Assembly: GCA_023484085.1 (NCBI GenBank)
Contig: JAMDAS010000001.1
Location: 1-64,000, forward strand
Source of the DNA: Candidatus Omnitrophota bacterium
Lineage (GTDB): Bacteria; Ratteibacteria; UBA8468; B48-G9; DTJG01
DNA length: 64,000 bases
Reading direction: 5' to 3'
Shown: positions 3,580 through 63,125 of the stretch, in pieces
Numbering within the stretch: the first letter of the stretch is position 1
How the letters are laid out: each line of letters starts with the position of its first letter
Notes under the pieces: generated by a model
Database searches by the model: none
The model's input: only the letters and a program-made list of their open reading frames with translations
What the model was told of the DNA's origin: nothing
Made by a program: the position numbers and the translations under genes

Positions 3580-4659
3580 TTAACCAAATTGACTGATAAA
3601 CCTTATGTCATTGTTGTAAAAATGCCTGATATCATCAATGCCATATTTTAACATTGCTATTCTTTCTATCCCCATTCCAAATGCAAAACCTGTAATCTTA
3701 TCAGGAGAATAAGCAGGGTCTTTCCGAGAAATATTTCCAAAAACTTCAGGATGGACCATTCCGGCTCCAAGAATCTCCAGCCACCCGCTACCTCCGCACG
3801 TGGAACATCCTTTGCCTTTGCAGATAACACATGAAATGGAAATCTCCGCACTTGGCTCCGTAAATGGGAAATATGCAGGTAAAAATCTCACCTTTATTTC
3901 AGAATCGAATAATTCTTTCAGAAAATATATCAATATCCCTTTAAGATGGGCAAAATTTATCCCATGCCCTACCATTAATCCTTCCATCTGGTGGAATACA
4001 GGAGAATGTGAAGAATCAAATGCATCCCGGCGGAAACATTTTCCAACGGCAATTATGCGAAAAGGCGGCTTGATTTTTTTCATTATCCTTATCTGGACAG
4101 GACTTGTATGTGTCCGTAGAAGAATTTTTTCATGATAATCAAGATACAGGGTATCCCACATATCCCTTGCCGGGTGATTTTCCGGCGTATTCAAGGCAGA
4201 AAAATTATAATAATCTGTTTCAATCTCAGGACCCGTATGAATACCAAAACCCATTTTTTTAAAAATATCAACCATATTTTTTGTAACAATGGTAAGAGGA
4301 TGCAGATAAGCATAATCAGGTTCTTTTCCTGGATACGTATATAAAGGCATACTGCCATGATGGAACGTTTCTTTTATTGCTGAAGAGGAAATTATCTCTT
4401 TTTTCTTATTCTCATAAAGAGAATTCAGATAATTTTTCCATTCATTTATTTTCCTGCCTGCCAGCGGTCTTAACTCCTCAGGAAGTCCTCCGATTTTCTG
4501 TGTAAAAGATAAGATCAACCCTTTCCTGCCAAAATATTTTATACGCCATTGTTCCAATTTTTCATTGTCACTTATATTTTTAATTCCATGTTGTGCAATC
4601 TCTATTTCTTTTTCTGCTTTTTCAAATATCTCATTATTCATATAAACGTTTCCTTTCAA
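3580..4659 (-). CDS. pheS: Phenylalanine--tRNA ligase alpha subunit
   Basis: Class II aaRS motifs (FRRDAFDSSHSPVFHQMEG, GFAFGMGIERIAML); 359 aa. Confidence 0.9.
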   Translation of the reverse strand: MKGNVYMNNEIFEKAEKEIEIAQHGIKNISDNEKLEQWRIKYFGRKGLILSFTQKIGGLPEELRPLAGRKINEWKNYLNSLYENKKKEIISSSAIKETFHHGSMPLYTYPGKEPDYAYLHPLTIVTKNMVDIFKKMGFGIHTGPEIETDYYNFSALNTPENHPARDMWDTLYLDYHEKILLRTHTSPVQIRIMKKIKPPFRIIAVGKCFRRDAFDSSHSPVFHQMEGLMVGHGINFAHLKGILIYFLKELFDSEIKVRFLPAYFPFTEPSAEISISCVICKGKGCSTCGGSGWLEILGAGMVHPEVFGNISRKDPAYSPDKITGFAFGMGIERIAMLKYGIDDIRHFYNNDIRFISQFG

Positions 4660-5227
4660 TATATTTCCTTACTTTTTCCGGAACAAGATATCTTATGGAT
4701 TTTTTCTCCCTGCAAAAATTTCTTATGGAACTTGATGATACATCTATAAAAGGGTTATTAATAATAAAATATTTAAGAGGAAAAGAAAAATCTGTCCCGG
4801 TTTTCTGAGATTTTTTATTCCGGGATGCAATTAAAAATGTGACCTCTTTAGATAAAGATGCAATATTTTTCCATTTATCAATAATACGAAATGCATCACT
4901 GCCGAGTATAAAAAAAAGAGCCGTATTTTTAAATTTTTTCCTGATTTGTAAAACAGTCCCATACGTATAAGAGACAGAAGTATTCCTGATCTCTATGTCA
5001 GCCACTTCAAAACGTGGATTATCTTCTATGGCAAGTTCAACCATTTTAAATCTGTCAAAACTGCCTGCTACGGGTAAGAACTTATGTGAAGGTATACCCG
5101 ATGGAATAAAAATAATCTTCTGAAGATGGAACTGCTGAAGGGATGTTTCTGCTATAACAAGATGTCCTATATGAGGAGGGTCAAAAGAACCGCCCAAAAT
5201 TCCAAGATTATTTTTTTTTGCCATCAT
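4634..5227 (-). CDS. nadD: Nicotinate-nucleotide adenylyltransferase
   Basis: GGSFDPPHIGH nucleotidyltransferase (HxGH) motif at N-terminus; 197 aa; SD AGGGAG upstream of ATGATG start. Confidence 0.85.
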   Translation of the reverse strand: MMAKKNNLGILGGSFDPPHIGHLVIAETSLQQFHLQKIIFIPSGIPSHKFLPVAGSFDRFKMVELAIEDNPRFEVADIEIRNTSVSYTYGTVLQIRKKFKNTALFFILGSDAFRIIDKWKNIASLSKEVTFLIASRNKKSQKTGTDFSFPLKYFIINNPFIDVSSSSIRNFCREKKSIRYLVPEKVRKYIERKRLYE

Positions 5228-5247
5228 TTTCTCCCTGATTAAAATTT

Positions 5248-5498
5248 GGTTCTGTCAAAAATGAAATAAATATACCTGTCCGCTCAGGTGCTCCGTCACA
5301 GACAAAACTACAAAGAAATCGTGCCAAAAACAACTCACTCCTGTCCGCATACTACTGCGGCCAGCGAGTTCAAACATGTTTTTGCAAAGAGACTAAAGTC
5401 TGATTGCACGAACGCTGACGCTTTTCTTCTTGTTTTGTTCCTGTGACTGTGCAATTCGCTATCAGGTATATTTATTTCATTTCTTATTTGACAGAACC
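5248..5498. other. GC-rich ~185-bp core flanked by near-perfect 31/36-bp inverted repeats (candidate structured ncRNA or non-autonomous element)
   Basis: Left arm ggttctgtcaaaaatgaaataaatatacctg (5248-5278) is reverse complement of right arm caggtatatttatttcatttcttatttgacagaacc (5463-5498) with a 5-nt indel. Inner nested inverted repeat cgtcacagacaaaac / gttttgttcctgtgactg. Core GC content far above surrounding AT-rich DNA. Confidence 0.5.
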
Positions 5499-5504
5499 TC
5501 AAAT

Positions 5505-6761
5505 TTAGCTTCTTATCTGGCCATTTCCATATATTAAATATTTGTAAATCGTAAGCTCCTCCAGAGCCATAGGTCCTCTTGCATGGAGCTTGTCCGTACT
5601 GATACCGATTTCCGCACCCATTCCAAATTCACCGCCATCTGTAAAACGGGTTGATGCATTATGATATACACAGGCAGAATCTACAGATAATAAAAATTTT
5701 TCTGCAGTTTTTTTATTACTTGTAACTATGGCATCAGAATGCTTTGTCCCGTATTTATTTATATGTGCAATGGCTTCATCAACGTCTTTAACAATCTTTA
5801 TTGAAAGAATCAAGTTTAGGTATTCTTCAGACCAGTCTTTTTCTGCCGCGGGAATAATAGCATCTACTATTGATAACGTTTCAGGACATCCTCTCATTTC
5901 CACACCTGCATCCCTGAATTTTTTTACCATGTCAGGAAGAAATTCTTTTGCAATGTCAATGTGAACAAGAAGCGTTTCCATAGCATTGCACGTAGCAGGC
6001 CTTTGAACCTTGGCATTATAACAAATCTCCTGCGCCATTGTAAGGTCAGCATCTCTGTCAACATAAGTATGGCAAACCCCTTTATAATGTTTTATAACAG
6101 GAATAAGACTATGTTCAGACACAGTTTCAATAAGGGACGTTCCGCCTCTTGGAATAATAAGGTCAATATACTCTTTCATTTTTAATATATATCTTACAGA
6201 CTGCCTGCCGCTGGCTCCCATATAACACACGCCATTTGAATTTATTCCTGTTTTTTCAAGGGCTTCTTTTATAAGAGATGTTAAAATCCTGTTTGAATTG
6301 ATTGATTCTTTCCCGCCTTTAAGCAGGACACAATTACCTGATTTTATACAAAGACTTGCAGCCTCAATGGTTACGTCAGGCCGTGATTCATAGATAATCC
6401 CTATAACGCCTATCGGGACTCTTATTTTTTTTATTACCATGCCATTGGGTCTTACATCCTGATGAAATATTTCCCCCACAGGGTCTTTTAAAAGAGCAAC
6501 TCTTTTCAGGGAATCCGACATCTTACTTACTCTTTCAGAGGTTAAGAGCAGCCTGTCTATAAAAGCTTTTGAATAATTATTTTTTCTGCATTTTTCTATG
6601 TCTTTTGAATTTTCATGAATTATTCTGTCTTTTTTTTCTTCCAGCAAAGATGAAAGAATTAAAAGAAACTCATTCTTTTTTTCCGTTGCCAATTGTGAAA
6701 ATTCAAAAGACGCATCCCTGGCACGTTTGATTTCTTCTTTTAGTTTTTCTTTCCAGTTCAT
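5505..6761 (-). CDS. proA: Gamma-glutamyl phosphate reductase
   Basis: Aldehyde dehydrogenase-family ProA (…RGGTSLIETV…, C-terminal GNGQIR). ORF-track N-terminus (to 6833) runs into repeat R2. Start chosen at MNWKEKLKEE (ATG 6759-6761) with AGGAAA SD. Confidence 0.85.
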   Translation of the reverse strand: MNWKEKLKEEIKRARDASFEFSQLATEKKNEFLLILSSLLEEKKDRIIHENSKDIEKCRKNNYSKAFIDRLLLTSERVSKMSDSLKRVALLKDPVGEIFHQDVRPNGMVIKKIRVPIGVIGIIYESRPDVTIEAASLCIKSGNCVLLKGGKESINSNRILTSLIKEALEKTGINSNGVCYMGASGRQSVRYILKMKEYIDLIIPRGGTSLIETVSEHSLIPVIKHYKGVCHTYVDRDADLTMAQEICYNAKVQRPATCNAMETLLVHIDIAKEFLPDMVKKFRDAGVEMRGCPETLSIVDAIIPAAEKDWSEEYLNLILSIKIVKDVDEAIAHINKYGTKHSDAIVTSNKKTAEKFLLSVDSACVYHNASTRFTDGGEFGMGAEIGISTDKLHARGPMALEELTIYKYLIYGNGQIRS

Positions 6762-6778
6762 AATATTTTCCTGAAGTA

Positions 6779-6884
6779 AGAGATAAGTTATGGATTGCTC
6801 TTCTCTTCTTTGTAAAAACATTCTTTCAAACAAAGATTCAAAGACAATCCAAACTTATTTCAAACACCGTTCAATGAGTATTTA
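6779..6884. repeat. MITE-like dispersed repeat copy R2 (modules A+B, no left TIR)
   Basis: gagataagttatggattgctcttctcttctttgtaaaaacattctttcaaacaaagattcaaagacaatccaaacttatttcaaacaccgttcaatgagtatttac; lies between proB and proA. Confidence 0.8.
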
Positions 6885-6924
6885 CCCCAAACTTATCCTG
6901 TTATTTTCTTTTTATGTCAGAATT

Positions 6925-7740
6925 TCAATCAGGGAGAAAGATTGTTCCTACGTCTTTTCCCTGAAAAATATCCTTAAGTACCCACGGTTTTTTGCCATTT
7001 GCAATAATACAGAACTTATTATTCTTCCCATCTCTCAAAACTCTCTCAATCGCATCAATCTTGGATACCATTCCGCCGCTACCCTTTAAAGAGGGCACAC
7101 CTTCCCTGGCAATTTGTTTTATTTTTTTTATTTGTTCCGTTATCCATATTACTTCTTTTACCGGCTTTGGATTATTATTATGTTTTGGGTCAAGATAACA
7201 AAACCCGTCTACATTCGTAAGTAAAACAAGACAATCCGCATTAAGAAGATGGACAACGAGAGAAGAAAGATAATCATTATCGCCAAATTTTATCTCTTCA
7301 ATTGCTATGGCATCATTTTCATTAATTATTGGTATAATTTTGTTCCCAAGAAGAGTCTGAAGGGTTATCTTTGCCCTTTCTCTTCTATCTTTAATTTCAA
7401 ATACGTCCCTTGTAAGGAGAACCTGTCCCACGTTATACCCCTCCTCACGAAAAATCCTTTCATAAAATCTCATAAGCCTGCTCTGCCCCACGCTTGCTGC
7501 AGCCTGGAGCTTTTCAATCTTTTCAGGTCTTTTTTTCCATCCAAGTATCTGGATACCTGCACCAATGGCGCCGGAGGTAACAATAATAACCTCTTTCCCA
7601 TGGGAAATAAGCCATACAACCTGTTCCCCGAGATGCTCCATTATAGAGGTATCCACCCTGTTGTTTGTATGGATTAGAACCTGTGTTCCTATTTTTATTA
7701 CCACCCTTTTAACTTTTTTCAGTAGTTCTTTTCTGTCCAT
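6925..7740 (-). CDS. proB: Glutamate 5-kinase (no PUA domain)
   Basis: Amino acid kinase fold: VVIKIGTQVL…, GNVGQVLLTRDVF…; start moved to MDRKELLKK (ATG 7738-7740). The 39 N-terminal residues in the ORF track are likely spurious. Confidence 0.8.
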   Translation of the reverse strand: MDRKELLKKVKRVVIKIGTQVLIHTNNRVDTSIMEHLGEQVVWLISHGKEVIIVTSGAIGAGIQILGWKKRPEKIEKLQAAASVGQSRLMRFYERIFREEGYNVGQVLLTRDVFEIKDRRERAKITLQTLLGNKIIPIINENDAIAIEEIKFGDNDYLSSLVVHLLNADCLVLLTNVDGFCYLDPKHNNNPKPVKEVIWITEQIKKIKQIAREGVPSLKGSGGMVSKIDAIERVLRDGKNNKFCIIANGKKPWVLKDIFQGKDVGTIFLPD

Positions 7741-8596
7741 TTTTTTCAATGATTTCTCTGACGTTTTTTGCCTCTTCCATGTATTTTTCAAGCAGGTTTT
7801 CATCTTTTTCCTGAAGCAGATGAATAAATTCATCAATCTCTGTTTTAAATCCCTCAATTGCTGATAAAACGTTATCCCTGTTATCTATAAATATCTCAGT
7901 CCATACCCGTGCATCACTCCCGGCTATCCTTGTAGTATCTCTAAGTCCGCTTCCAATACTTACAAAAAACCCCTTTTTATCAATCTCTCTTTTTAATCCT
8001 CTGCACAAGGCAAATATTATACTATGCGGAAGATGGCTTGTATATGCAAGGAGCTCATCGTGCCTGCCCGCATCCATAACAATTGTTTTTCCACCGAGAG
8101 ATTTCCAGAATTTTTCTATATGTCTGAAAGATGAGGGACTGCTTTTCTCCCCTGGGGTTAAAACTATTGTCTTATCATTAAACATATCCGCATCTGCAAA
8201 ATCAATTCCTTTTTTTTCAGAACCGGCTATTGGATGTGAACCAACAAAATTATGTGGATTGGAAAAACAGGCATCAACATGCTGGACAATCGTGGCTTTT
8301 GTGCTGCCTATATCCGTAAAAAGCAACCCGGGTTTCAGATGGACAACGTCTTCAACATATTTATTGTTTGAAAAAACCGGGGCGCAAAGAATTAAAAAAT
8401 TTGCGTCCTTAACAATCTCCTGAAAAGATGTAAATCCCTTATCAATAATCCCTGACTTTTCAGCTTTTATGATTGTTTCAGCCGTCCTTGTCCATCCCAA
8501 AACCTTTCCTGCAACCTTCCTTTTTTTTATGGCAAGCCCTAATGAGCCACCAAGGAGGCCTAAACCTACAATGCCAACGTTTTCAAATTCAGGCAT
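7709..8596 (-). CDS. tyrA: Prephenate dehydrogenase
   Basis: N-terminal Rossmann VGIVGLGLLGGSLGLA, ~295 aa TyrA-like. Confidence 0.7.
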   Translation of the reverse strand: MPEFENVGIVGLGLLGGSLGLAIKKRKVAGKVLGWTRTAETIIKAEKSGIIDKGFTSFQEIVKDANFLILCAPVFSNNKYVEDVVHLKPGLLFTDIGSTKATIVQHVDACFSNPHNFVGSHPIAGSEKKGIDFADADMFNDKTIVLTPGEKSSPSSFRHIEKFWKSLGGKTIVMDAGRHDELLAYTSHLPHSIIFALCRGLKREIDKKGFFVSIGSGLRDTTRIAGSDARVWTEIFIDNRDNVLSAIEGFKTEIDEFIHLLQEKDENLLEKYMEEAKNVREIIEKNGQKRTTEKS

Positions 8597-15859: not shown

Positions 15860-17521
15860 ATGAGTAAACTACAACAAAAACATAGAAACACAGAAACTTT
15901 GATGATTAGAGATTCTTATCAGCAATATTTATTCCCGGATATGCCTTTAATAACATCAAAACGAGAGTTCTTACATAAAGCAAGAAGCAAAACAAGTCTG
16001 GGATTACAATGCGAGAAAATAAATATTCTCATAAACAAAATTGGATTTGAGAATGCGTGGTATTCAATTTTAGCCACACATATCTATCAACTTCATCAAT
16101 CCCCCTTTGATTATCTTTTAAAACAACAAGAGTTTGCGAATGCAGTTATTTTGGATTCAGATATACTTTATTATCTTTCTATTGGTGAAATAGCAACACT
16201 TTATGAGTATTCTTTGTCGTATCTTAATAGAAATAAAAGAGCTCAGGAAGGACAGTATTTTACGCCTGATGATGTGGCTCAAGTAATGGCAAAAAGATCG
16301 CTCTTTTTCCCCCCTGATAAAATTTGGGTTGACCCTTGTTCAGGAATTGGTAATCTTTCCTTTTGGTTGATTAAGTTACAGAGTAATCCTGAGAGTTTTT
16401 TAACTAATCAACTTTATTTGATTGACAAGGATGCACTAGCATTGTTTATTGCCAGAACTTTATTCACACTATCATTTCAAAATAAATCAAAAAATTTATT
16501 TATTGAAATAGCACCTCGTTTTATAGTTGCAGATTTCCTTTTTGCTTCCGAACTTCCGGCATTTGATTTTGCTATTCTAAATCCACCCTATGTAGAAGTG
16601 GAATCTGATAATCGTTTTAAAACTGCTAAAACACGTAATTTGTATGCTTATTTTTTGGAACGAGTTATTAATCTATCAAGGGGATTTGTTTCTATTACAC
16701 CACAAACTTTCACGCACGGACAGAGATTTAAGACTTTACGCCAATTACTAATTGAAAATATGAAGGATATTTCAATTTATTGTTTTGATAATGTTCCTGA
16801 TACGATATTCAAAGGAATTAAATTTGGCTCAACCAATACAAATAAAACCAACAGCATAAGGGCGTCCATCACCGTAGCAAAATCTGAAAGTAAATTTCCT
16901 TGTTTTAAAATTACACCCTTGTTGCGATGGCGAACAAAAGAAAGAAAAAAAATACTGGAGAGTATTGATGATTATTTGACCAATGTAGAACCAAGCGTGG
17001 ATATTTTCCCCAAAATTCAAAAGGAACTTCTGTATTTATATTATGAAGTAAAAAAGGTGAAAAAAACATTGGTAAATCTTGTTTCAACCAATCCAACACA
17101 ATATAAACTCGTCATCCCAACCACGCCCAGATATTTTATTTCTGCACTGCGAACAGAAGTTAATCGTTCTTCATTCAGAATATTATATTTTTATAATAAA
17201 AAAGACTACGACCTTGCCTATATTTTATTAAATAGCAGTTATGCTTACTGGTGGTGGCGGATTAATGATGGTGGAATGACGATTTCAGAAAAAACTTTGC
17301 TTTCATTACCAATTCCAGATAACATTCCTGTTAACAGTCAACTTATATCAAAGATTGAACAATCAGAACTCACAAACCGAGTTTTCAAAAAAAATGCAGG
17401 TAAAAACAATGAGAATGTAAAACATAAAGCAATTCTTATAGGAGAAATAAATCAAACTCTTTTTCTTGATTTCGCTTCTGCACTTAACCATCTACATAAT
17501 AATTCGGTTATTACTATATGA
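15860..17521 (+). CDS. N6-adenine-specific DNA methyltransferase (gamma-class, HsdM/Eco57I-like catalytic domain + C-terminal putative target-recognition region)
   Basis: Motif X GQYFTP, motif I VDPCSGIGNLSF, motif IV FAILNPPYVEV in gamma-class order; 553 aa. One of only three plus-strand genes in the window. Confidence 0.65.
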   Translation: MSKLQQKHRNTETLMIRDSYQQYLFPDMPLITSKREFLHKARSKTSLGLQCEKINILINKIGFENAWYSILATHIYQLHQSPFDYLLKQQEFANAVILDSDILYYLSIGEIATLYEYSLSYLNRNKRAQEGQYFTPDDVAQVMAKRSLFFPPDKIWVDPCSGIGNLSFWLIKLQSNPESFLTNQLYLIDKDALALFIARTLFTLSFQNKSKNLFIEIAPRFIVADFLFASELPAFDFAILNPPYVEVESDNRFKTAKTRNLYAYFLERVINLSRGFVSITPQTFTHGQRFKTLRQLLIENMKDISIYCFDNVPDTIFKGIKFGSTNTNKTNSIRASITVAKSESKFPCFKITPLLRWRTKERKKILESIDDYLTNVEPSVDIFPKIQKELLYLYYEVKKVKKTLVNLVSTNPTQYKLVIPTTPRYFISALRTEVNRSSFRILYFYNKKDYDLAYILLNSSYAYWWWRINDGGMTISEKTLLSLPIPDNIPVNSQLISKIEQSELTNRVFKKNAGKNNENVKHKAILIGEINQTLFLDFASALNHLHNNSVITI

Positions 17522-18186
17522 TACTATCAAAACAACTATTAAATGAAATCGTTACAGGATTATTAAAAATGCCTAATAAATGGAATGCTCGTAAAATTTA
17601 TTTAGAGTGGAAAAGAATTAATAGCCGGCATTTTCGACAAACGGAATGGATTGGTTGGCGGTTCCAAGAACTTTGTGAACAATACCTGAAATCAATTCAA
17701 AAATTTAATTTTTCGCCTCAGAGATATGGTTATGCTGATTTTGATGCATTTGCAGAAATCCCATGGGACTTCAAGACACACATTCGTCAAAATCCTCGTG
17801 GACAACAAACTCACAAGGTTCCCGGCACTGATAGACGAGCGACTTTCCAAGCAATTAAGGATTATGGAGCAGTTGGTTTCATCATAGGAATAGGCGATGC
17901 TGTTTTTAACGATAAAGATAGAAGTTTTCAACTTTGGCACAATAAACTCAAGGGTGGTTTGTCAGAGTATGAGAAAGAGAGAGTATCCCGTGGGGCACCT
18001 TCCCGTCTACGTAAAACTGCGTTTTCTCTATGTGAAATTTGGATTATTGAAGTTGACGAAAAATTATACAAGAATCTTGAAACTTTTATGGAAGGGTTTA
18101 GAAATAGAGACGGAAACCCTCGTAAAGCAAAAGTAATGTTGGATTTAAATAAAATTGAACCGATTTACAAGATTGAGTTTTCATAA
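17518..18186 (+). CDS. Hypothetical protein translationally coupled to the methyltransferase; candidate restriction endonuclease/partner
   Basis: ATGA start/stop overlap with preceding gene. 222 aa. Possible PD-(D/E)xK-like core D76-x7-D84-F-K86 (YADFDAFAEIPWDFK). No other recognisable domain. Confidence 0.35.
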   Translation: MILSKQLLNEIVTGLLKMPNKWNARKIYLEWKRINSRHFRQTEWIGWRFQELCEQYLKSIQKFNFSPQRYGYADFDAFAEIPWDFKTHIRQNPRGQQTHKVPGTDRRATFQAIKDYGAVGFIIGIGDAVFNDKDRSFQLWHNKLKGGLSEYEKERVSRGAPSRLRKTAFSLCEIWIIEVDEKLYKNLETFMEGFRNRDGNPRKAKVMLDLNKIEPIYKIEFS

Positions 18187-18221: not shown

Positions 18222-18314
18222 GTAAATATTCACTAAGACAGTGTTTCCACCAAAAAGATTGGCGGATCAAAGACGAGCCAAACTTATTTCAAGCACCGTT
18301 AACTGAGTATTTAC
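18222..18314. repeat. MITE-like dispersed repeat copy R3 (modules C+B with both TIRs)
   Basis: gtaaatattcactaagacagtgtttcc…attggcgga…ccaaacttatttcaagcaccgttaactgagtatttac. Confidence 0.8.
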
Positions 18315-18320
18315 AAATTC

Positions 18321-19394
18321 TTAGTATCCAAAGTCTGCCTTGACAGAAACACTTTCTCTTGTAGATGGTTTTAAAAGCGCTTTTGCTTCATCAGAAATTC
18401 CTGAAAATTTGTACCACCACGGCTTAGACATGGACCGGGCAAGTTTTTTTATAATTTTAATTCTTGGAAGAGCAATTTTTTTAAATGATTTTTCCAGGGT
18501 CTCCCAATCTTTTGTATCAGGGTCAGTAAATGCTTCTTTAAAATAAGCCCTGCCGCACATGGGTCCGCAAATAATGTCTGAAACTATACTATACTGTGCT
18601 ACATACTGTTCAAAATCAACTGCAGCGCTTAAAAGAAGGATAGGCCTTGGCGAAATCTTTTCCATTTCAGATGCGGTATCCCGGACAACCTGTGGGGAGG
18701 AAATGTTTATAACCTTTCCATTTTCTTCAATCCATAATAATGGAACCTGTGTTTTATAGAAATTGCCAATTAAACCAAAATCCTGAGCCATTTTTATAAG
18801 TCCTTCAGGCAGTCTTTTGGCAAATTCTTTTTTATCTTCACCTGGTTCAGGAGAAAGAAGTGTTTCAGTAAATAATGGTTTACCAAGTTTTTCTGCTCTT
18901 TCAAAAGTATCTTTTGCAAAAGCAAGATTTTTTTCCCAGCTTTCCTTATGTGATGGATTTAATTTTACAAGAATTTTAAAGCCATCAACTTTTTCTGCAA
19001 TGTCTTCCGGCTGAACGGCAAGTTTTGTAATCTGCCCTCTCCCGCCATCAATATTGATTGTATTGGTGTCTTCAAGTCTTCCTATTAAAAGAACGTTTTC
19101 ACCAAGCGTTTTTTTAAATCCGGGCGTAAGATATGCAAAATGATTAAAAAGAGCTGCTGTTGTAATCCCACCAAGATTTTTTGCAAAACGAAGACATATC
19201 TCTTTTACATCACTATCTTCTGCTTTTTTGGGTTTCCCTATATGCTTAAAAAACGTTTCCCCTAATTTAAGATAAGAATTATGCTGGTCCGATGCAAAAA
19301 CATCAAGAATTCCATCAGGAGAAAATTTTGCAAGAATCTTAAAAACCTTCTCTTCAATCTTTACTCCATCCTTATATTTAACTTCTATTCCCAT
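18321..19394 (-). CDS. Class I fructose-bisphosphate aldolase (DeoC/LacD/FbaB family)
   Basis: ILVKLNPSHKESW matches FbaB FLVKLNHNETLSY region; start moved to MGIEVKY (ATG 19392-19394) preceded by AAGGGGGA SD; adjacent to PPi-PFK. Confidence 0.55.
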   Translation of the reverse strand: MGIEVKYKDGVKIEEKVFKILAKFSPDGILDVFASDQHNSYLKLGETFFKHIGKPKKAEDSDVKEICLRFAKNLGGITTAALFNHFAYLTPGFKKTLGENVLLIGRLEDTNTINIDGGRGQITKLAVQPEDIAEKVDGFKILVKLNPSHKESWEKNLAFAKDTFERAEKLGKPLFTETLLSPEPGEDKKEFAKRLPEGLIKMAQDFGLIGNFYKTQVPLLWIEENGKVINISSPQVVRDTASEMEKISPRPILLLSAAVDFEQYVAQYSIVSDIICGPMCGRAYFKEAFTDPDTKDWETLEKSFKKIALPRIKIIKKLARSMSKPWWYKFSGISDEAKALLKPSTRESVSVKADFGY

Positions 19395-34094: not shown

Positions 34095-34117
34095 ATTTTT
34101 CTCCTCACTTGTTCACT

Positions 34118-34208
34118 GTAAATATTCACTAAGACAGTGTTTCCGCCTCAAAGACAATCCACACTTATTTCAAATACTGTTCACTGAGTATTCACTGCAA
34201 ATATTCAC
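34118..34208. repeat. MITE-like repeat copy R6 (C+B modules with TIRs) inserted between nuoM and nuoN
   Basis: gtaaatattcactaagacagtgtttccgcctcaaagacaatccacacttatttcaaatactgttcactgagtattcac; abuts nuoM stop codon. Confidence 0.85.
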
Positions 34209-47397: not shown

Positions 47398-47432
47398 TTT
47401 TACTCAGGTATCTGAAATTCTGACATTACAAG

Positions 47433-47545
47433 CACTACCTGTGCATACTCTCCGCCTTCTTTGGAAAGACAACTACCTGTATGGTAAAAACAGGCGTCGT
47501 GGTGAATTATAAAGCAGTAAAGAGAAATCCAGAACTTATCTCTTA
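47433..47545. repeat. Repeat copy R11 (inverted orientation; ~90-bp hairpin-rich module also found inside R8)
   Basis: cactacctgtgcatactctccgccttctttggaaag…cctgtatggtaaaaacaggcgtcgtggtgaattataaagcag…agaacttatctc is reverse complement of 49631-49745 with few mismatches. Confidence 0.75.
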
Positions 47546-47600
47546 CTTTGAGTATGGCATAAATAAATCTCTATGTCAGAATTTCATTCAGGTATAGAAA

Positions 47601-47895: not shown

Positions 47896-48495
47896 TTATT
47901 TAAGAAATAAAGCCCAATATAAAGCAACTGCTTTTTTAACAGCAAATGCAGCGGAAGATGATGAAATAGTAGCGCCGCTTACCGAATCAATATCCTTTCC
48001 AACTTCAATTGGACTTTTAATGTTTTTCCCGATAAACTGTTTCAGCCAGACCTTGTTTGCAATGGGTCTGCCCCATTGTTCCCTATATTTCATAACCACA
48101 ACTCTTTTCACTGACCCATCAGGATTTAGACCTATCATAAATGTGTTCTGTCCCCATCTTCCCGGTTCAACGTCTATAAGAGCCACACCTACTTCTTTTC
48201 CATCCCTGGTTCCTTTATAAAATGTAAAGGTAGTTGTAGGTTCTACCCCCCAATTTTCTCCTACAGGAGATTTGTATACTAATCTATCTCCTAATTTTCT
48301 TTCAACCTCACGTTTTTCTTCATGACTAACTAATTTTTTCACTATAGGTGTTATTTGCACTCCGGTTCCCAGCACCATTTGCAATGCCTGGTCTTGTGTA
48401 GCGAGTGTCTGGTAAGCGTTTGCCTGACTTGTTAAAAATAAAACACCCGCTCCTGCTGCTGCCAATAATAATAGCTTTTTACTCATTCTACACAT
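47896..48495 (-). CDS. Exported FMN-binding domain protein (ApbE substrate-type)
   Basis: Signal peptide; C-terminal DSVSGATISS flavinylation motif (S/T-G-A-T/S) of FMN_bind domains. Confidence 0.6.
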   Translation of the reverse strand: MCRMSKKLLLLAAAGAGVLFLTSQANAYQTLATQDQALQMVLGTGVQITPIVKKLVSHEEKREVERKLGDRLVYKSPVGENWGVEPTTTFTFYKGTRDGKEVGVALIDVEPGRWGQNTFMIGLNPDGSVKRVVVMKYREQWGRPIANKVWLKQFIGKNIKSPIEVGKDIDSVSGATISSSSAAFAVKKAVALYWALFLK

Positions 48496-48526: not shown

Positions 48527-49588
48527 TTAGTTTGTGGTTCCTGATTTTTTTCCGCGTGTTTCCAAATCTTTTTTTAGACCCGGGCTGGTCCATAATTTCC
48601 CGGATTCCGTTATAATGATAGCCTGTATCTCTGGCTCTTTCTTTAATGCTTTCAAACCATTTTGGGGCCCCATAACAAAAAGAGTAGTCCCCCATGCATC
48701 AGTTAATGCTGCTCCTGGTCCGATAGCTGTTGTCCCTATAACGCCATGGGCAGGCCAGCCTGTTTTAGGATTAAAGATATGACTATACCTTTTGCCATTA
48801 TAAAAAAAATAATGTTCATAATCACCCGAAGAAGCAACATACAGGTCTTCTATTTTCATATATCCCAAAAGACCTTTACCCCGTGGTGATTTAATTCCAA
48901 CAACCCACATTTTTTTATTGTCTTTTCCTAATGCATATATATCCCCGCCACCATTAATCAAAGCAGATTTTATTCCATTTGCTTTTAATACTTTTACAGC
49001 CTGGCCAACAGCATAACCTTTTGTAAGAGCCCCCAAATCTATTTCAATACTCTTTTTATCCTTAATCAGTGCCCCATTATGAATCCTTAAATGCCACCAG
49101 CCAACATATTTAAGGGCTTTTCTTATGTTTTTTTCAGAAGGGACATGTGGATGTTCTGTATCAAAACCCCAGAGTGCAACCAGAGGGTGTATTGTAATAT
49201 CAAATGCTCCTCCTGATTCTTTGCTAATCTTTATTGCTTCTTTTACTACATGAAGAATATCCGGATTAGTAATTGGTGTTCCATAGTGATTAAATTTATA
49301 AACAGGACTTTTGGGATTTTCCGGGTTCATTTCATTTCCTATCTCTTCCATCCTGTCCATTGCTAAATTAATAGCATGGTCCGTAATCTTTTTATTCGGA
49401 CCATATGCAGATATAATTATATATGTATACATCATATAGCGCATTTCTTTATACAGGTGTTCTACACTACCATTTTGTTCATGCACTATAGATTGATGAT
49501 TTGTGTTATTCTCACCCCATACAACGTTTATTGAACACATCAACATAAAAATTAGTATTCCAGCAAAAACTTTATTTTTCATAAGCAT
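48527..49588 (-). CDS. apbE: FAD:protein FMN transferase (ApbE family)
   Basis: 353 aa ApbE family, signal peptide, adjacent to FMN-binding domain substrate gene. Confidence 0.75.
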   Translation of the reverse strand: MLMKNKVFAGILIFMLMCSINVVWGENNTNHQSIVHEQNGSVEHLYKEMRYMMYTYIIISAYGPNKKITDHAINLAMDRMEEIGNEMNPENPKSPVYKFNHYGTPITNPDILHVVKEAIKISKESGGAFDITIHPLVALWGFDTEHPHVPSEKNIRKALKYVGWWHLRIHNGALIKDKKSIEIDLGALTKGYAVGQAVKVLKANGIKSALINGGGDIYALGKDNKKMWVVGIKSPRGKGLLGYMKIEDLYVASSGDYEHYFFYNGKRYSHIFNPKTGWPAHGVIGTTAIGPGAALTDAWGTTLFVMGPQNGLKALKKEPEIQAIIITESGKLWTSPGLKKDLETRGKKSGTTN

Positions 49589-49619: not shown

Positions 49620-49630
49620 ATATATATTCA

Positions 49631-49811
49631 GATATAAGTTATGGATTGCTCTTTCCTGCTTTATAAATTCACCACGACGCCTGTTTTTAGCAAACAGGCA
49701 GTCGCTCTCCAAAGAAGGCGGAGAGTATGCACAGGTAGTGCCTGTTCTGTGCATAATAAAGATTTAAAGACAATCCAAACTTACTTCAGACGTCGTTCAC
49801 TGAGTATTTAC
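49631..49811. repeat. Composite repeat copy R8 (module A + ~90-bp hairpin insert + module B)
   Basis: gatataagttatggattgctcttt…[cctgtttttagcaaacagg; ctctccaaagaaggcggagag hairpins]…agacaatccaaacttacttcag…cactgagtatttac. Confidence 0.8.
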
Positions 49812-49821
49812 GGTATTGTTA

Positions 49822-49866
49822 TGATAATAAAAATAATTTATCATATGAAAATTTTTTGTCAAATTT
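49822..49866 (-). promoter_or_regulatory. Candidate sigma70-type promoter module (TTGACA -35), duplicated at 51431-51476
   Basis: Minus strand: aaaTTTGACAaaaaattttcatatgaTAAATTattttt; -35 TTGACA, ~16-nt spacer, TAAATT -10-like; near-identical 45-bp copy downstream of the ubiA/menA-like gene. Confidence 0.3.
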
Positions 49867-49940
49867 CAGTTTTTCCCCCCATCTATTCTAAGAATAGATG
49901 GGGGGAATTATATACAACCTTTCAATTTTCCATGACTATA

Positions 49941-53820: not shown

Positions 53821-53933
53821 TTAATCCTCCTGTTATATTCAAAAAAATAAAAATTTATAAAGTTGATAAATCTACTAATATATATTTTATAACCATTTTT
53901 ATTTTTGTCAAAATTATTTCAGCCAGCCGGTTA

Positions 53934-54938
53934 CTACTTACATTTTGGTAAATTATTACGATTAAATCCAAGATTTGCAACCCATACATTCCCAGCAGAA
54001 TCTATTGCTATACCAACAGGGTTACTTACCACATCGTATGTTCCAATAGTTTTTCCACCGGGGCCAAGCTTTGTTACACCTTTACTCCCATAATTTGCAA
54101 CCCATACATTCCCGGTAGAATCTATCGCTATACCCCCGGGAAAACTTCCCACAGGATAAATCCCAATAGTTTTTCCACTAAAACTTAGTTTTGTTACATT
54201 ATCACTCCCCTCATTTGTAACCCATACATTTCCATGAGGGTTTATCGCTATACCAATTGGACCGCTTCCCACATGATAAATCCCGATAGTTTTTCCACTA
54301 AAACTTAGTTTTGTTACATTATTACTTCCCTCATTTACAACCCATACATTTCCATGAGGGTCTACTGCTATACCAATTGGACCGCTTCCCACAGGGTATG
54401 TCCCGATAGTTTTTCCACTAAAACTTAGTTTTGTTACATTATTACTGCGCCAATTGGCAACCCATACATTTCCATGATGGTCTATCGCTATACCATCAGG
54501 TCCTTTTCCCACAGGATATGTTCCTATAGTTTTTCCACTGGAATTTAGTTTGGTTACATTATTACTTACAGGATTTGCAATCCACACATTTCCAGCAGAA
54601 TCTATCGCTATACCCCAAGGTCCTTTTCCCACAGGATATGTTCCAATAGACTTTCCAGTTGAACTAAGCTTTGTTACATTATTACTTCCAAGGTTTGTAA
54701 TCCATACATTTCCAGTAGAATCTATTGCTATACCAATAGGTCCTTTTCCCACAGGATATGTTCCAATAGACTTTCCAGTTGAACTAAGCTTTGTTATACT
54801 GTTATTTCCAGCATTTGCAACCTGTACTTTTCCAGTAGAAGCCCAAACAATGGAATTAATAAAAAATAAATACAGAATTGCTCCATAGAAGACCAAAAAT
54901 TTTAATAATCTTTTACTCATAAGTTCCTCTTTTTTCAT
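53934..54938 (-). CDS. Secreted NHL/YVTN-type beta-propeller repeat protein
   Basis: Signal/anchor N-terminus, then eight ~40-aa tandem repeats (…NNVTKLSxSGKTIGTYPVGxGPxGIAIDxxGNVWVxN…); underlying DNA is a ~120-bp tandem array. Confidence 0.65.
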   Translation of the reverse strand: MKKEELMSKRLLKFLVFYGAILYLFFINSIVWASTGKVQVANAGNNSITKLSSTGKSIGTYPVGKGPIGIAIDSTGNVWITNLGSNNVTKLSSTGKSIGTYPVGKGPWGIAIDSAGNVWIANPVSNNVTKLNSSGKTIGTYPVGKGPDGIAIDHHGNVWVANWRSNNVTKLSFSGKTIGTYPVGSGPIGIAVDPHGNVWVVNEGSNNVTKLSFSGKTIGIYHVGSGPIGIAINPHGNVWVTNEGSDNVTKLSFSGKTIGIYPVGSFPGGIAIDSTGNVWVANYGSKGVTKLGPGGKTIGTYDVVSNPVGIAIDSAGNVWVANLGFNRNNLPKCK

Positions 54939-61879: not shown

Positions 61880-62059
61880 GTAAATATTCACTAAGACAGT
61901 GTTTCCGCCTAAAAGATTGGCGGACAGGTATAATTTATTTACCTGAAGTAGAAAATAAGTTCTGGATTGCTCTTCTCATCTTTGTAAAAACGTTCTTTCA
62001 AACAAATCCTCAAAGACAATCCAAACTTATTTCAAACACTGTTCCACTTGAGTATTTAC
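61880..62059. repeat. Full-length MITE-like repeat R9 (TIR-C-linker-A-B-TIR)
   Basis: gtaaatattcactaagacagtgtttccgcctaaaagattggcgga…aaataagttctggattgctcttctcatctttgtaaaaacgttctttcaaacaaatcctcaaagacaatccaaacttatttcaaacactgttccacttgagtatttac. Confidence 0.85.
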
Positions 62060-62066
62060 TAAAAAG

Positions 62067-63125
62067 TTATATTAATTCCTGGTATACTTTTAAGGTTTCT
62101 TCAGTCATCTTTTCAACTGTAAATTTTTCAAGACTGATTTTTTGGGCATTTTCTGTTATCTTTCCTGTTTCCCGGGGATGTAAAAGAATGTATTTTATCG
62201 CCTCAACCATCTGTAATGAATCCCGGGGTTCAACAAGAAATCCTGTCCTTTTATTCTCTATCAATTCAGGTATCGCTCCTATGTTTGAGGCAACCACAGG
62301 AACACCCGCCATCTGGGCTTCCACCACCACCCTTCCAAACCCTTCAGGTTCAAAAGACGGAACTGAAAGAACATCCATTTTTTTTAAAGCCTGCCTGCTA
62401 TCCATTGACAGGATTTCAATAGAATTTTCCATTTTATTCCGGACTATACAGGCATGGATTCTTTTTTTATATTTTTCACTCCCTGTTCCCACCAGTATAC
62501 CCTTTACTTTCTCCCCTTCCTCCAATAGTTTTTTCATTGCTTTCATGTAATAAAAATGCCCTTTTGTTTTTGAAAATCTTGCAATCATCCCTATCACAGG
62601 GGTTTCGTTTATTTCTTTTTTAATGTCAAAAAAATCATTTTTTGAAACACCATTATATACAAGTCTGAGCTTTTCTTCAGGAACTTTCAGGTATTTTATT
62701 GCATATTCTTTAATTGCATTACTTACCACAATAATCCTCTGTCCAAAACCAAGCGATTTTGTCCAAAATCTTAAATGGCAAAAACTATGTATGCTTGTTA
62801 CCCATCCAATCCCGGGAAATTGTTTTATTACACTTGACATAATCCAGCAGGGAAACCTGCTTTCAGAATGGATTATATCGGGTTTTTCCTTATCTATGAT
62901 TTTTCTTAGTTCTTTTTTTGCATGTGCGAATATTTTTATATTTTTGTTATCCATAGAAAGGTCATGCCAGTCAATCCCTTTCTGCTTAAGAAGCGGAATA
63001 AACCTGCCATATCCGGAAACAACTATAACATGGTGGCCCATTCTGTCTGCCTCTAAAGAGAAATCGTATACGCCCCTTTCAATTCCTGCAAAATCCATTG
63101 AAGGAAGAACTCTTAAAATTTTCAT
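62067..63125 (-). CDS. Family 4 (GT-B) glycosyltransferase
   Basis: C-terminal EPEGFGRVVVEAQMAGVPVVAS (EX7E region). Confidence 0.75.
   Translation of the reverse strand: MKILRVLPSMDFAGIERGVYDFSLEADRMGHHVIVVSGYGRFIPLLKQKGIDWHDLSMDNKNIKIFAHAKKELRKIIDKEKPDIIHSESRFPCWIMSSVIKQFPGIGWVTSIHSFCHLRFWTKSLGFGQRIIVVSNAIKEYAIKYLKVPEEKLRLVYNGVSKNDFFDIKKEINETPVIGMIARFSKTKGHFYYMKAMKKLLEEGEKVKGILVGTGSEKYKKRIHACIVRNKMENSIEILSMDSRQALKKMDVLSVPSFEPEGFGRVVVEAQMAGVPVVASNIGAIPELIENKRTGFLVEPRDSLQMVEAIKYILLHPRETGKITENAQKISLEKFTVEKMTEETLKVYQELI

Follow-up and report, generated by a model that had tools for sequence, protein, structure and literature searches.

The window analysed here, a stretch of 64,000 nucleotides in its whole length, carries on the minus strand the genes proB, proA, nadD, pheS and pheT in this order, all of them assigned by NCBIfam equivalog models, with a 251-bp non-coding element between proA and nadD. 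An earlier note on the same DNA had named proA and nadD as the genes flanking this element, and the NCBIfam models agree; both genes are on the minus strand. MCL5674127.1, a protein of a Candidatus Omnitrophota MAG, has the same sequence as the NadD protein (100% identity). The C-terminus of ProA reads ...GNGQIRS before the stop, versus ...GNGQIRK in its relatives. The features of the locus are listed below in window coordinates.

4634..5224, minus strand: nadD, nicotinate-nucleotide adenylyltransferase, intact (NCBIfam equivalog model)
5240..5247, no strand: putative target-site duplication, copy 1, TAAAATTT, contiguous with the tip of the element
5248..5498, no strand: the element, 251 bp, non-coding, MITE-like, predicted to form one imperfect rod hairpin
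5248..5278, no strand: terminal inverted repeat on the nadD side, 31 nt, GGTTCTGTCAAAAATGAAATAAATATACCTG
5289..5322, no strand: nested subterminal inverted repeats, left half (inverted-repeat search and half-versus-half alignment)
5337..5418, no strand: non-palindromic centre with two local stem-loops, the most G+C-rich part of the element
5418..5453, no strand: nested subterminal inverted repeats, right half (inverted-repeat search and half-versus-half alignment)
5463..5498, no strand: terminal inverted repeat on the proA side, 36 nt, reverse complement GGTTCTGTCAAATAAGAAATGAAATAAATATACCTG
5499..5506, no strand: putative target-site duplication, copy 2, TCAAATTT, sharing two bases with the end of the proA stop codon
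5505..6755, minus strand: proA, glutamate-5-semialdehyde dehydrogenase, intact (NCBIfam equivalog model)
6925-7857, minus strand: proB (NCBIfam equivalog model)

The element begins 6 nt beyond the stop codon of proA (5507-5505), where 7 nt had been reported before. The Shine-Dalgarno sequence of nadD (GGGAG, 5235-5231) lies 12 nt past the other end; the 20 nt formerly given for this interval is the distance to the first nadD ATG (5227-5225). As the essential genes nadD, pheS and pheT follow with no convincing promoter in between, the element is presumably co-transcribed with proBA-nadD-pheST. Within the window, the plus-strand sequence 5228-5246 also matches 6939-6921 on the minus strand at 18/19 positions (TTCTCCCTGATTRAAATT, E 0.014), pairing the upstream flank of nadD (antisense) with the end of proB; the second of these sites adjoins the multi-copy repeat family described below.

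Read on the plus strand, 5248-5498 starts with GGTTCTGTCAAAAATGAAATAAATATACCTG and finishes with the reverse complement of GGTTCTGTCAAATAAGAAATGAAATAAATATACCTG. The two terminal arms, 31 and 36 nt long, are identical at 31/31 matched positions, which fall into two segments of 12 nt and 19-20 nt, and they differ by a single 5-nt insertion (TAAGA/ATAAG) located in the 5463-5498 arm. The near-perfect inverted repeats with a 5-nt indel described in the earlier note are thus real, and the nested inverted repeat that it mentioned is present as well, in the form of two pairs (5289-5301/5441-5453 and 5302-5322/5418-5438). The inner 20-mer of the arm occurs at two sites in the 64-kb window, both of which are the arms themselves, compared with 0.02 expected. 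An alignment of the left half against the reverse-complemented right half showed palindromy extending ~90 nt inward from each end at ~82% identity. The central 70-80 nt are non-palindromic and contain two local stem-loops, a G+C-rich one at ~5337-5369 (CCGCA...TGCGG) and another at ~5375-5418 with the apex AGACTAAAGTCT. Open reading frames inside the element do not exceed 55 aa, and its concatenated six-frame translation had no relative among 5.8 billion proteins, not even spurious ORFs from other copies.

The whole 251 bp are predicted to fold into one rod hairpin of about -100 kcal/mol, whichever strand is taken. For 5240-5505, the minus-strand fold reached -104 kcal/mol (z -9.1 versus shuffles) and the plus-strand fold -99 kcal/mol (z -12.1). 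In a direct comparison the energies of the two strands were -97.8 and -102.6 kcal/mol, and no more than 2 and 3, respectively, of the ~90 pairs were G-U. As judged from these models, near-equal folding of both strands with so few G-U pairs is the mark of complementarity at the DNA level and not of an RNA shaped on one strand. The predicted rod has small internal loops and a branched centre, without a large central bubble. The core had been called strikingly GC-rich; it is indeed elevated (45.7% G+C versus a window mean of 37.4%), but with 5.8% of all 184-nt windows equally G+C-rich it falls into the top 6% and is hardly striking. The element as a whole, at 41% G+C, is unremarkable.

The element is bordered at both tips, without intervening bases, by a direct repeat of 8 bp (TAAAATTT / TCAAATTT). 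The copies are identical at 7/8 positions, one mismatch being present, and the sequence is AT-rich; agreement of at least 7/8 around a 251-nt segment occurs at 0.08% of window positions, or 0.7% if both octamers are AT-rich. Written for the sense (minus) strand, the two junctions are ...AGAAGCT[AAATTTGA]GGTTCTGTC......GACAGAACC[AAATTTTA]ATCAGGGAGAAAATG, with the repeat copies in single brackets. Removing the element together with one repeat copy leaves ...AGA AGC TAA ATTTTAATCAGGGAGAAA ATG, a short spacer of ordinary type that includes a ribosome-binding site. Neither gene was therefore disrupted, and nadD retains its own ribosome-binding site. An alternative boundary model, with a 4-nt AGAA duplication further out, was rejected as less parsimonious than the 8-bp repeat at the GG tips.

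The same junction was then compared in four relatives, represented by eight contigs (L050-L057) from NCBI, JGI, ENA and Logan. The closest nadD relatives among 5.8 billion proteins were 71%, 66%, and 59% identical, and the ProA proteins of the relatives were 81-83% identical. In all eight contigs (8/8) proA and nadD overlap, with neither spacer nor insert; it spans 4 nt (ATGA) in L050-L056 and more in L057, a contig of 1.5 kb that contains no more than the 3' end of proA, nadD, and part of the next gene. The order proB-proA-nadD-pheS(-pheT) is kept in the three relatives with enough flanking DNA. The coding flanks align position by position with those of the window as far as the last proA codon and again from the nadD start; between these points the junction of the relatives reads ...CAGATAAGAAAATGACAG..., while the window carries 277 extra bases. 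Since proA and nadD overlap without an insert in four relatives, sequence comparison indicates that the element is an insertion. Presence versus absence in related genomes is one of the criteria for MITEs, and here the site is empty in four relatives and eight contigs. In the relatives, translation of nadD is coupled to proA via the overlap; in the window, nadD has a GGGAG of its own. The segment 5476-5490, i.e., the minus-strand 5' arm with the 5-nt insertion, reads ATAAGAAATGA and resembles the ancestral proA/nadD overlap ATAAGAAAATGA (L050 3985-4000); this likeness is probably due to chance in AT-rich sequence.

We infer from these data that the element is a non-autonomous DNA transposon, a MITE or the relic of one, and give this reading a probability of about two in three. 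A MITE was one of the candidates named in the earlier note, and it is favored by the long terminal inverted repeats, the abutting 8-bp repeat, the lack of coding capacity, the empty site in relatives, and tips that resemble transposase-bound ends. The element would then be a solitary MITE-like insertion whose ends may be IS6-like: ordinary selfish DNA and not a new RNA gene.

A structured small RNA with a 6S-like closing stem was another of the earlier candidates. A free-standing gene of this kind, 6S-like or of a new class, ~250 nt in length and closed by the long stem, would fit the very stable predicted structure, the core that is somewhat more G+C-rich than the genome, and the promoter-like sequence TTGCCA-16-TAAAAT just upstream of the element on the plus strand. 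However, the Rfam scan that the note had called for, run over 4900-5900 on both strands, returned no family, 6S included, at E<=10 and only snoRNA and miRNA noise at E>1; at gathering threshold, the whole window contained one tRNA only. The element and 6S RNA (Rfam RF00013 and relatives) are of roughly similar length and share a long closing stem, but the element has no covariance-model match, lacks the large central bubble, is not conserved in relatives, and is flanked by an apparent target duplication, which would be unexpected for an RNA gene. None of the relatives has it at this site, and the collections searched yielded no homologue. Neither strand is favored in folding and G-U pairs are almost missing; moreover, there is no plus-strand terminator, and promoter-like and terminator-like sites in the region show no excess over shuffled controls. 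A small RNA gene is, for these reasons, highly improbable.

The location inside a co-directional operon, with the Shine-Dalgarno sequence of nadD just outside the stem, could also point to a cis-acting hairpin in the operon transcript, one that terminates transcription in part, is processed by RNase III, or insulates nadD-pheST from proBA, and that either evolved in place or was retained from a transposon because it was useful. On the sense strand, the 3' arm does contain a terminator-like site (5289-5274), and AAAUUUUAAU comes after the rod; but such sites number 1 versus 0.7 in shuffles, and the short U-run has AAA in front of it. An intrinsic terminator would require a compact G+C-rich stem with a U-run immediately behind it, and an attenuator would require alternative leader structures, conserved in relatives, ahead of the gene that it regulates; the region contains one weak site, and the relatives have no leader at all. 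With the essential genes nadD and pheST downstream, strong termination is unlikely. Unrelated strong hairpins in the proA-nadD spacer of L002, L007, and L015 (z -5 to -6.5) speak for such a role, yet the closest relatives do without any spacer, both strands fold equally well, and the 8-bp duplication and transposon-type tips account for the origin of the element without a function. A cis-acting role is accordingly unlikely, and the attenuator proposed before is not supported as the origin of the element, as the site is unoccupied and the genes overlap in the relatives. Alternatively, the palindrome might have arisen locally without a transposon, by fold-back duplication during replication or repair, or as an artefact of MAG assembly. 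The single known copy comes from a single MAG contig, and palindromy reaches well past the terminal repeats, as this would predict. Nevertheless, the sequence is not derived from neighboring DNA (blastn within the window), its centre is not palindromic, neither flanking gene is damaged or out of register with its orthologues, the ends bear a transposon-type tip and the abutting 8-bp duplication, and the element is located mid-contig (99 kb), not at a contig end. We regard a local origin as very doubtful.

For a MITE family, several copies would be expected, along with a partner transposase. The earlier note had held that multiple copies would favor a mobile element; in the 64-kb window there is one copy, and no second was detected by blastn or by arm and tip patterns allowing mismatches. 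Nor was a second copy found by blastn in 80 loci. In JGI metagenome contigs, the 20-nt arm gave 22 single-arm matches that extended no further than ~30 nt, a number expected by chance for an AT-rich 20-mer. Viral contigs yielded two chance matches only, one of them inside a coding region, and with plasmid and phage sequences, blastn set for distant similarity produced nothing beyond short matches at E~1. A parent transposase was not among the ten candidate ORFs of the 64-kb window, which encode TatC, FMN-binding, methylase, or glycosyltransferase proteins or have no Pfam match. It should be considered that 64 kb out of a genome of ~1-2 Mb (our estimate, not a measured size) would usually miss a low-copy family.

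A second palindromic repeat family, modular and unrelated in sequence to the element, is present in the window in at least seven copies, all of them intergenic:

1007-1150, 6764-6915, 18222-18344, 34117-34201, 47423-47548 (inverted), 49624-49841, and 61880-62070: copies of the second repeat family

Its modules are mutually complementary (AGATAAGTTATGGATTGCTCTT with AAAGACAATCCAAACTTATTTC and GTAAATATTCACT with CACTGAGTATTTAC), and no Rfam family matched it at gathering score. One copy fills the proB-proA spacer, which is only ~20 nt long in L050 and L051. Such insertions are evidently tolerated in this genome, given that the second family is abundant in intergenic gaps, including proB-proA. 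Two inverted copies (47423-47508 and 49666-49750, 91-92% complementary) bracket two genes, 47896-48495 (FMN-binding domain) and 48527-49588, in an arrangement that looks like a composite element. Other structures were observed elsewhere in the window. A perfect 17-nt palindrome with a 1-nt loop, TTCCCCCCATCTATTCT / AGAATAGATGGGGGGAA, is located at 49873-49907. Seven tandem units of 120 nt (53853-54872, 60-82% identical) lie inside the ORF 53934-54938, which presumably encodes a protein with 40-residue repeats. Within an otherwise minus-strand block, a plus-strand gene pair at 15860-18186 encodes first a 553-aa protein of the Eco57I/N6-methylase type and then one of 222 aa without Pfam match; the pair may represent a small restriction-modification island.

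The proA-nadD spacers of other lineages hold strong hairpins of their own, unrelated to the element (L002 3890-3979, L004 4003-4094, L007 1732-1980, L015 4230-4346). Two Omnitrophota MAGs have 7-nt units there (GGCTACA... and CTGAAGC...), repeated in arrays with an inverted arrangement. In a Nitrospirae MAG this position is taken by a rod of 268 nt with -103 kcal/mol, and in L015 by a long G+C-rich hairpin. These hairpins may simply mean that intergenic gaps of operons tolerate such elements.

Should the element be a transposon, as we favor, a DDE transposase encoded elsewhere would have bound both terminal inverted repeats and inserted the element (251 bp) at an AT-rich target of 8 bp, which reads AAATTTTA in sense orientation, within a short proA-nadD spacer, duplicating the target. 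GG at positions 1-2, G7, CTGT, CAAA, and the 8-bp duplication would point to an IS6/IS26-like transposase; enzymes of this type act by replicative cointegrate formation followed by resolution. The element would now be a passenger in the operon transcript, where it could form an mRNA rod of ~90 base pairs. Going by the predicted fold, this rod may lower read-through or draw cleavage by RNase III or another double-strand RNase, as a side-effect and not as the reason for its presence. It is quite unlikely that the rod was retained as a useful double-stranded RNA for processing or insulation, and, more broadly, that the proA-nadD junction has repeatedly recruited advantageous, unrelated palindromes across phyla; the broader version rests on the hairpins in L002/L004, L007, and L015. 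If retention were true, the genes of proline synthesis would have been uncoupled from the essential nadD-pheST, which in the relatives are translationally coupled to proA. On the transposon reading, the locus would illustrate that a tightly coupled, overlapping gene pair can gain a spacer and then host a 251-bp palindromic transposon with both genes intact. It would also add a possible IS6-like MITE for the poorly studied phylum Omnitrophota, with little import beyond annotation. The locus would gain more weight if the hairpin shaped operon expression, or if a transposase with 31-36-nt ends existed.

Among known systems, ERIC elements and Correia elements are palindromic intergenic repeats that lie inside operons and are co-transcribed. 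The element resembles those of enterobacteria (ERIC) and Neisseria (Correia) in being an imperfect palindrome of the 100-250-bp class between co-directional genes, which would give a long hairpin in the mRNA, and in having terminal inverted repeats and a short target duplication. ERIC and Correia elements occur in tens to hundreds of copies per genome, versus the one copy found here, and are not known to be similar to the element in sequence; Correia elements duplicate TA, not 8 bp. Tips with GG and 8-bp duplications are also known from IS1, IS256, and IS1595. Any family assignment is tentative, as ISL3, IS1, IS256, and IS1595 all fit GG tips with an 8-bp duplication. ISL3 combines the two, the inverted repeat of ISArsp7 being GGCTCTTCGCGG... 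with repeats of 24 nt (PMC6305408). The element is similar to the ISL3 ends of ISArsp7 in its GG tips, its 8-bp duplication, and its longer inverted repeats (PMC6305408), but agrees with them at only 5/8 first bases, versus 8/8 for the IS6 consensus, and there is no CAAA in register.

The terminal-repeat consensus of the IS6/IS26 family is GGTTCTGTTGCAAA, 14 bp, in which G1, G2, and G7 show practically no variation and the motifs CTGT and CAAA are conserved; GG tips with G7 are found in families other than IS6, too (PMC6807381). The tip of the element, GGTTCTGTCAAA, matches this consensus exactly at positions 1-8, followed by CAAA after a 2-nt gap and without G10; written as GGTTCTGT--CAAA, it carries G1, G2, and G7. 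The 8-bp flanking repeat fits the family as well, which generates target duplications of this length (PMC7986276). Provided that the element is a transposon, we put the chance that its tips are IS6-like, as their sequence suggests, at slightly below even. A search of the literature for the exact tip string matched only unrelated primer sequences. An outward -35-like hexamer is found in the tip, TTGACA in the element and TTGCAA in the IS6 family consensus (PMC6807381, PMC7986276). An outward hybrid promoter from TTGACA to nadD was rejected on inspection, as no -10-like hexamer follows at 16-18 nt. Unlike IS6/IS26 ends, the tip is 2 nt shorter and without G10, a base that is usually conserved in them, and the arms measure 31-36 nt instead of the usual 14-20 nt. 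Two MITEs of 227 and 336 bp have been catalogued for this family (PMC6807381; PMC7986276). The element differs from them in its mostly palindromic interior and in its host, an Omnitrophota MAG, and neither a partner IS nor a second copy was found for it. Even so, it is like these MITEs (MITEBth2, MITEHarch3; 227, 336 bp) in size class, in having two inverted ends, and in lacking a transposase gene and, compared by description, it shares with them the GG start, G7, CTGT and CAAA, and the 8-bp duplication.
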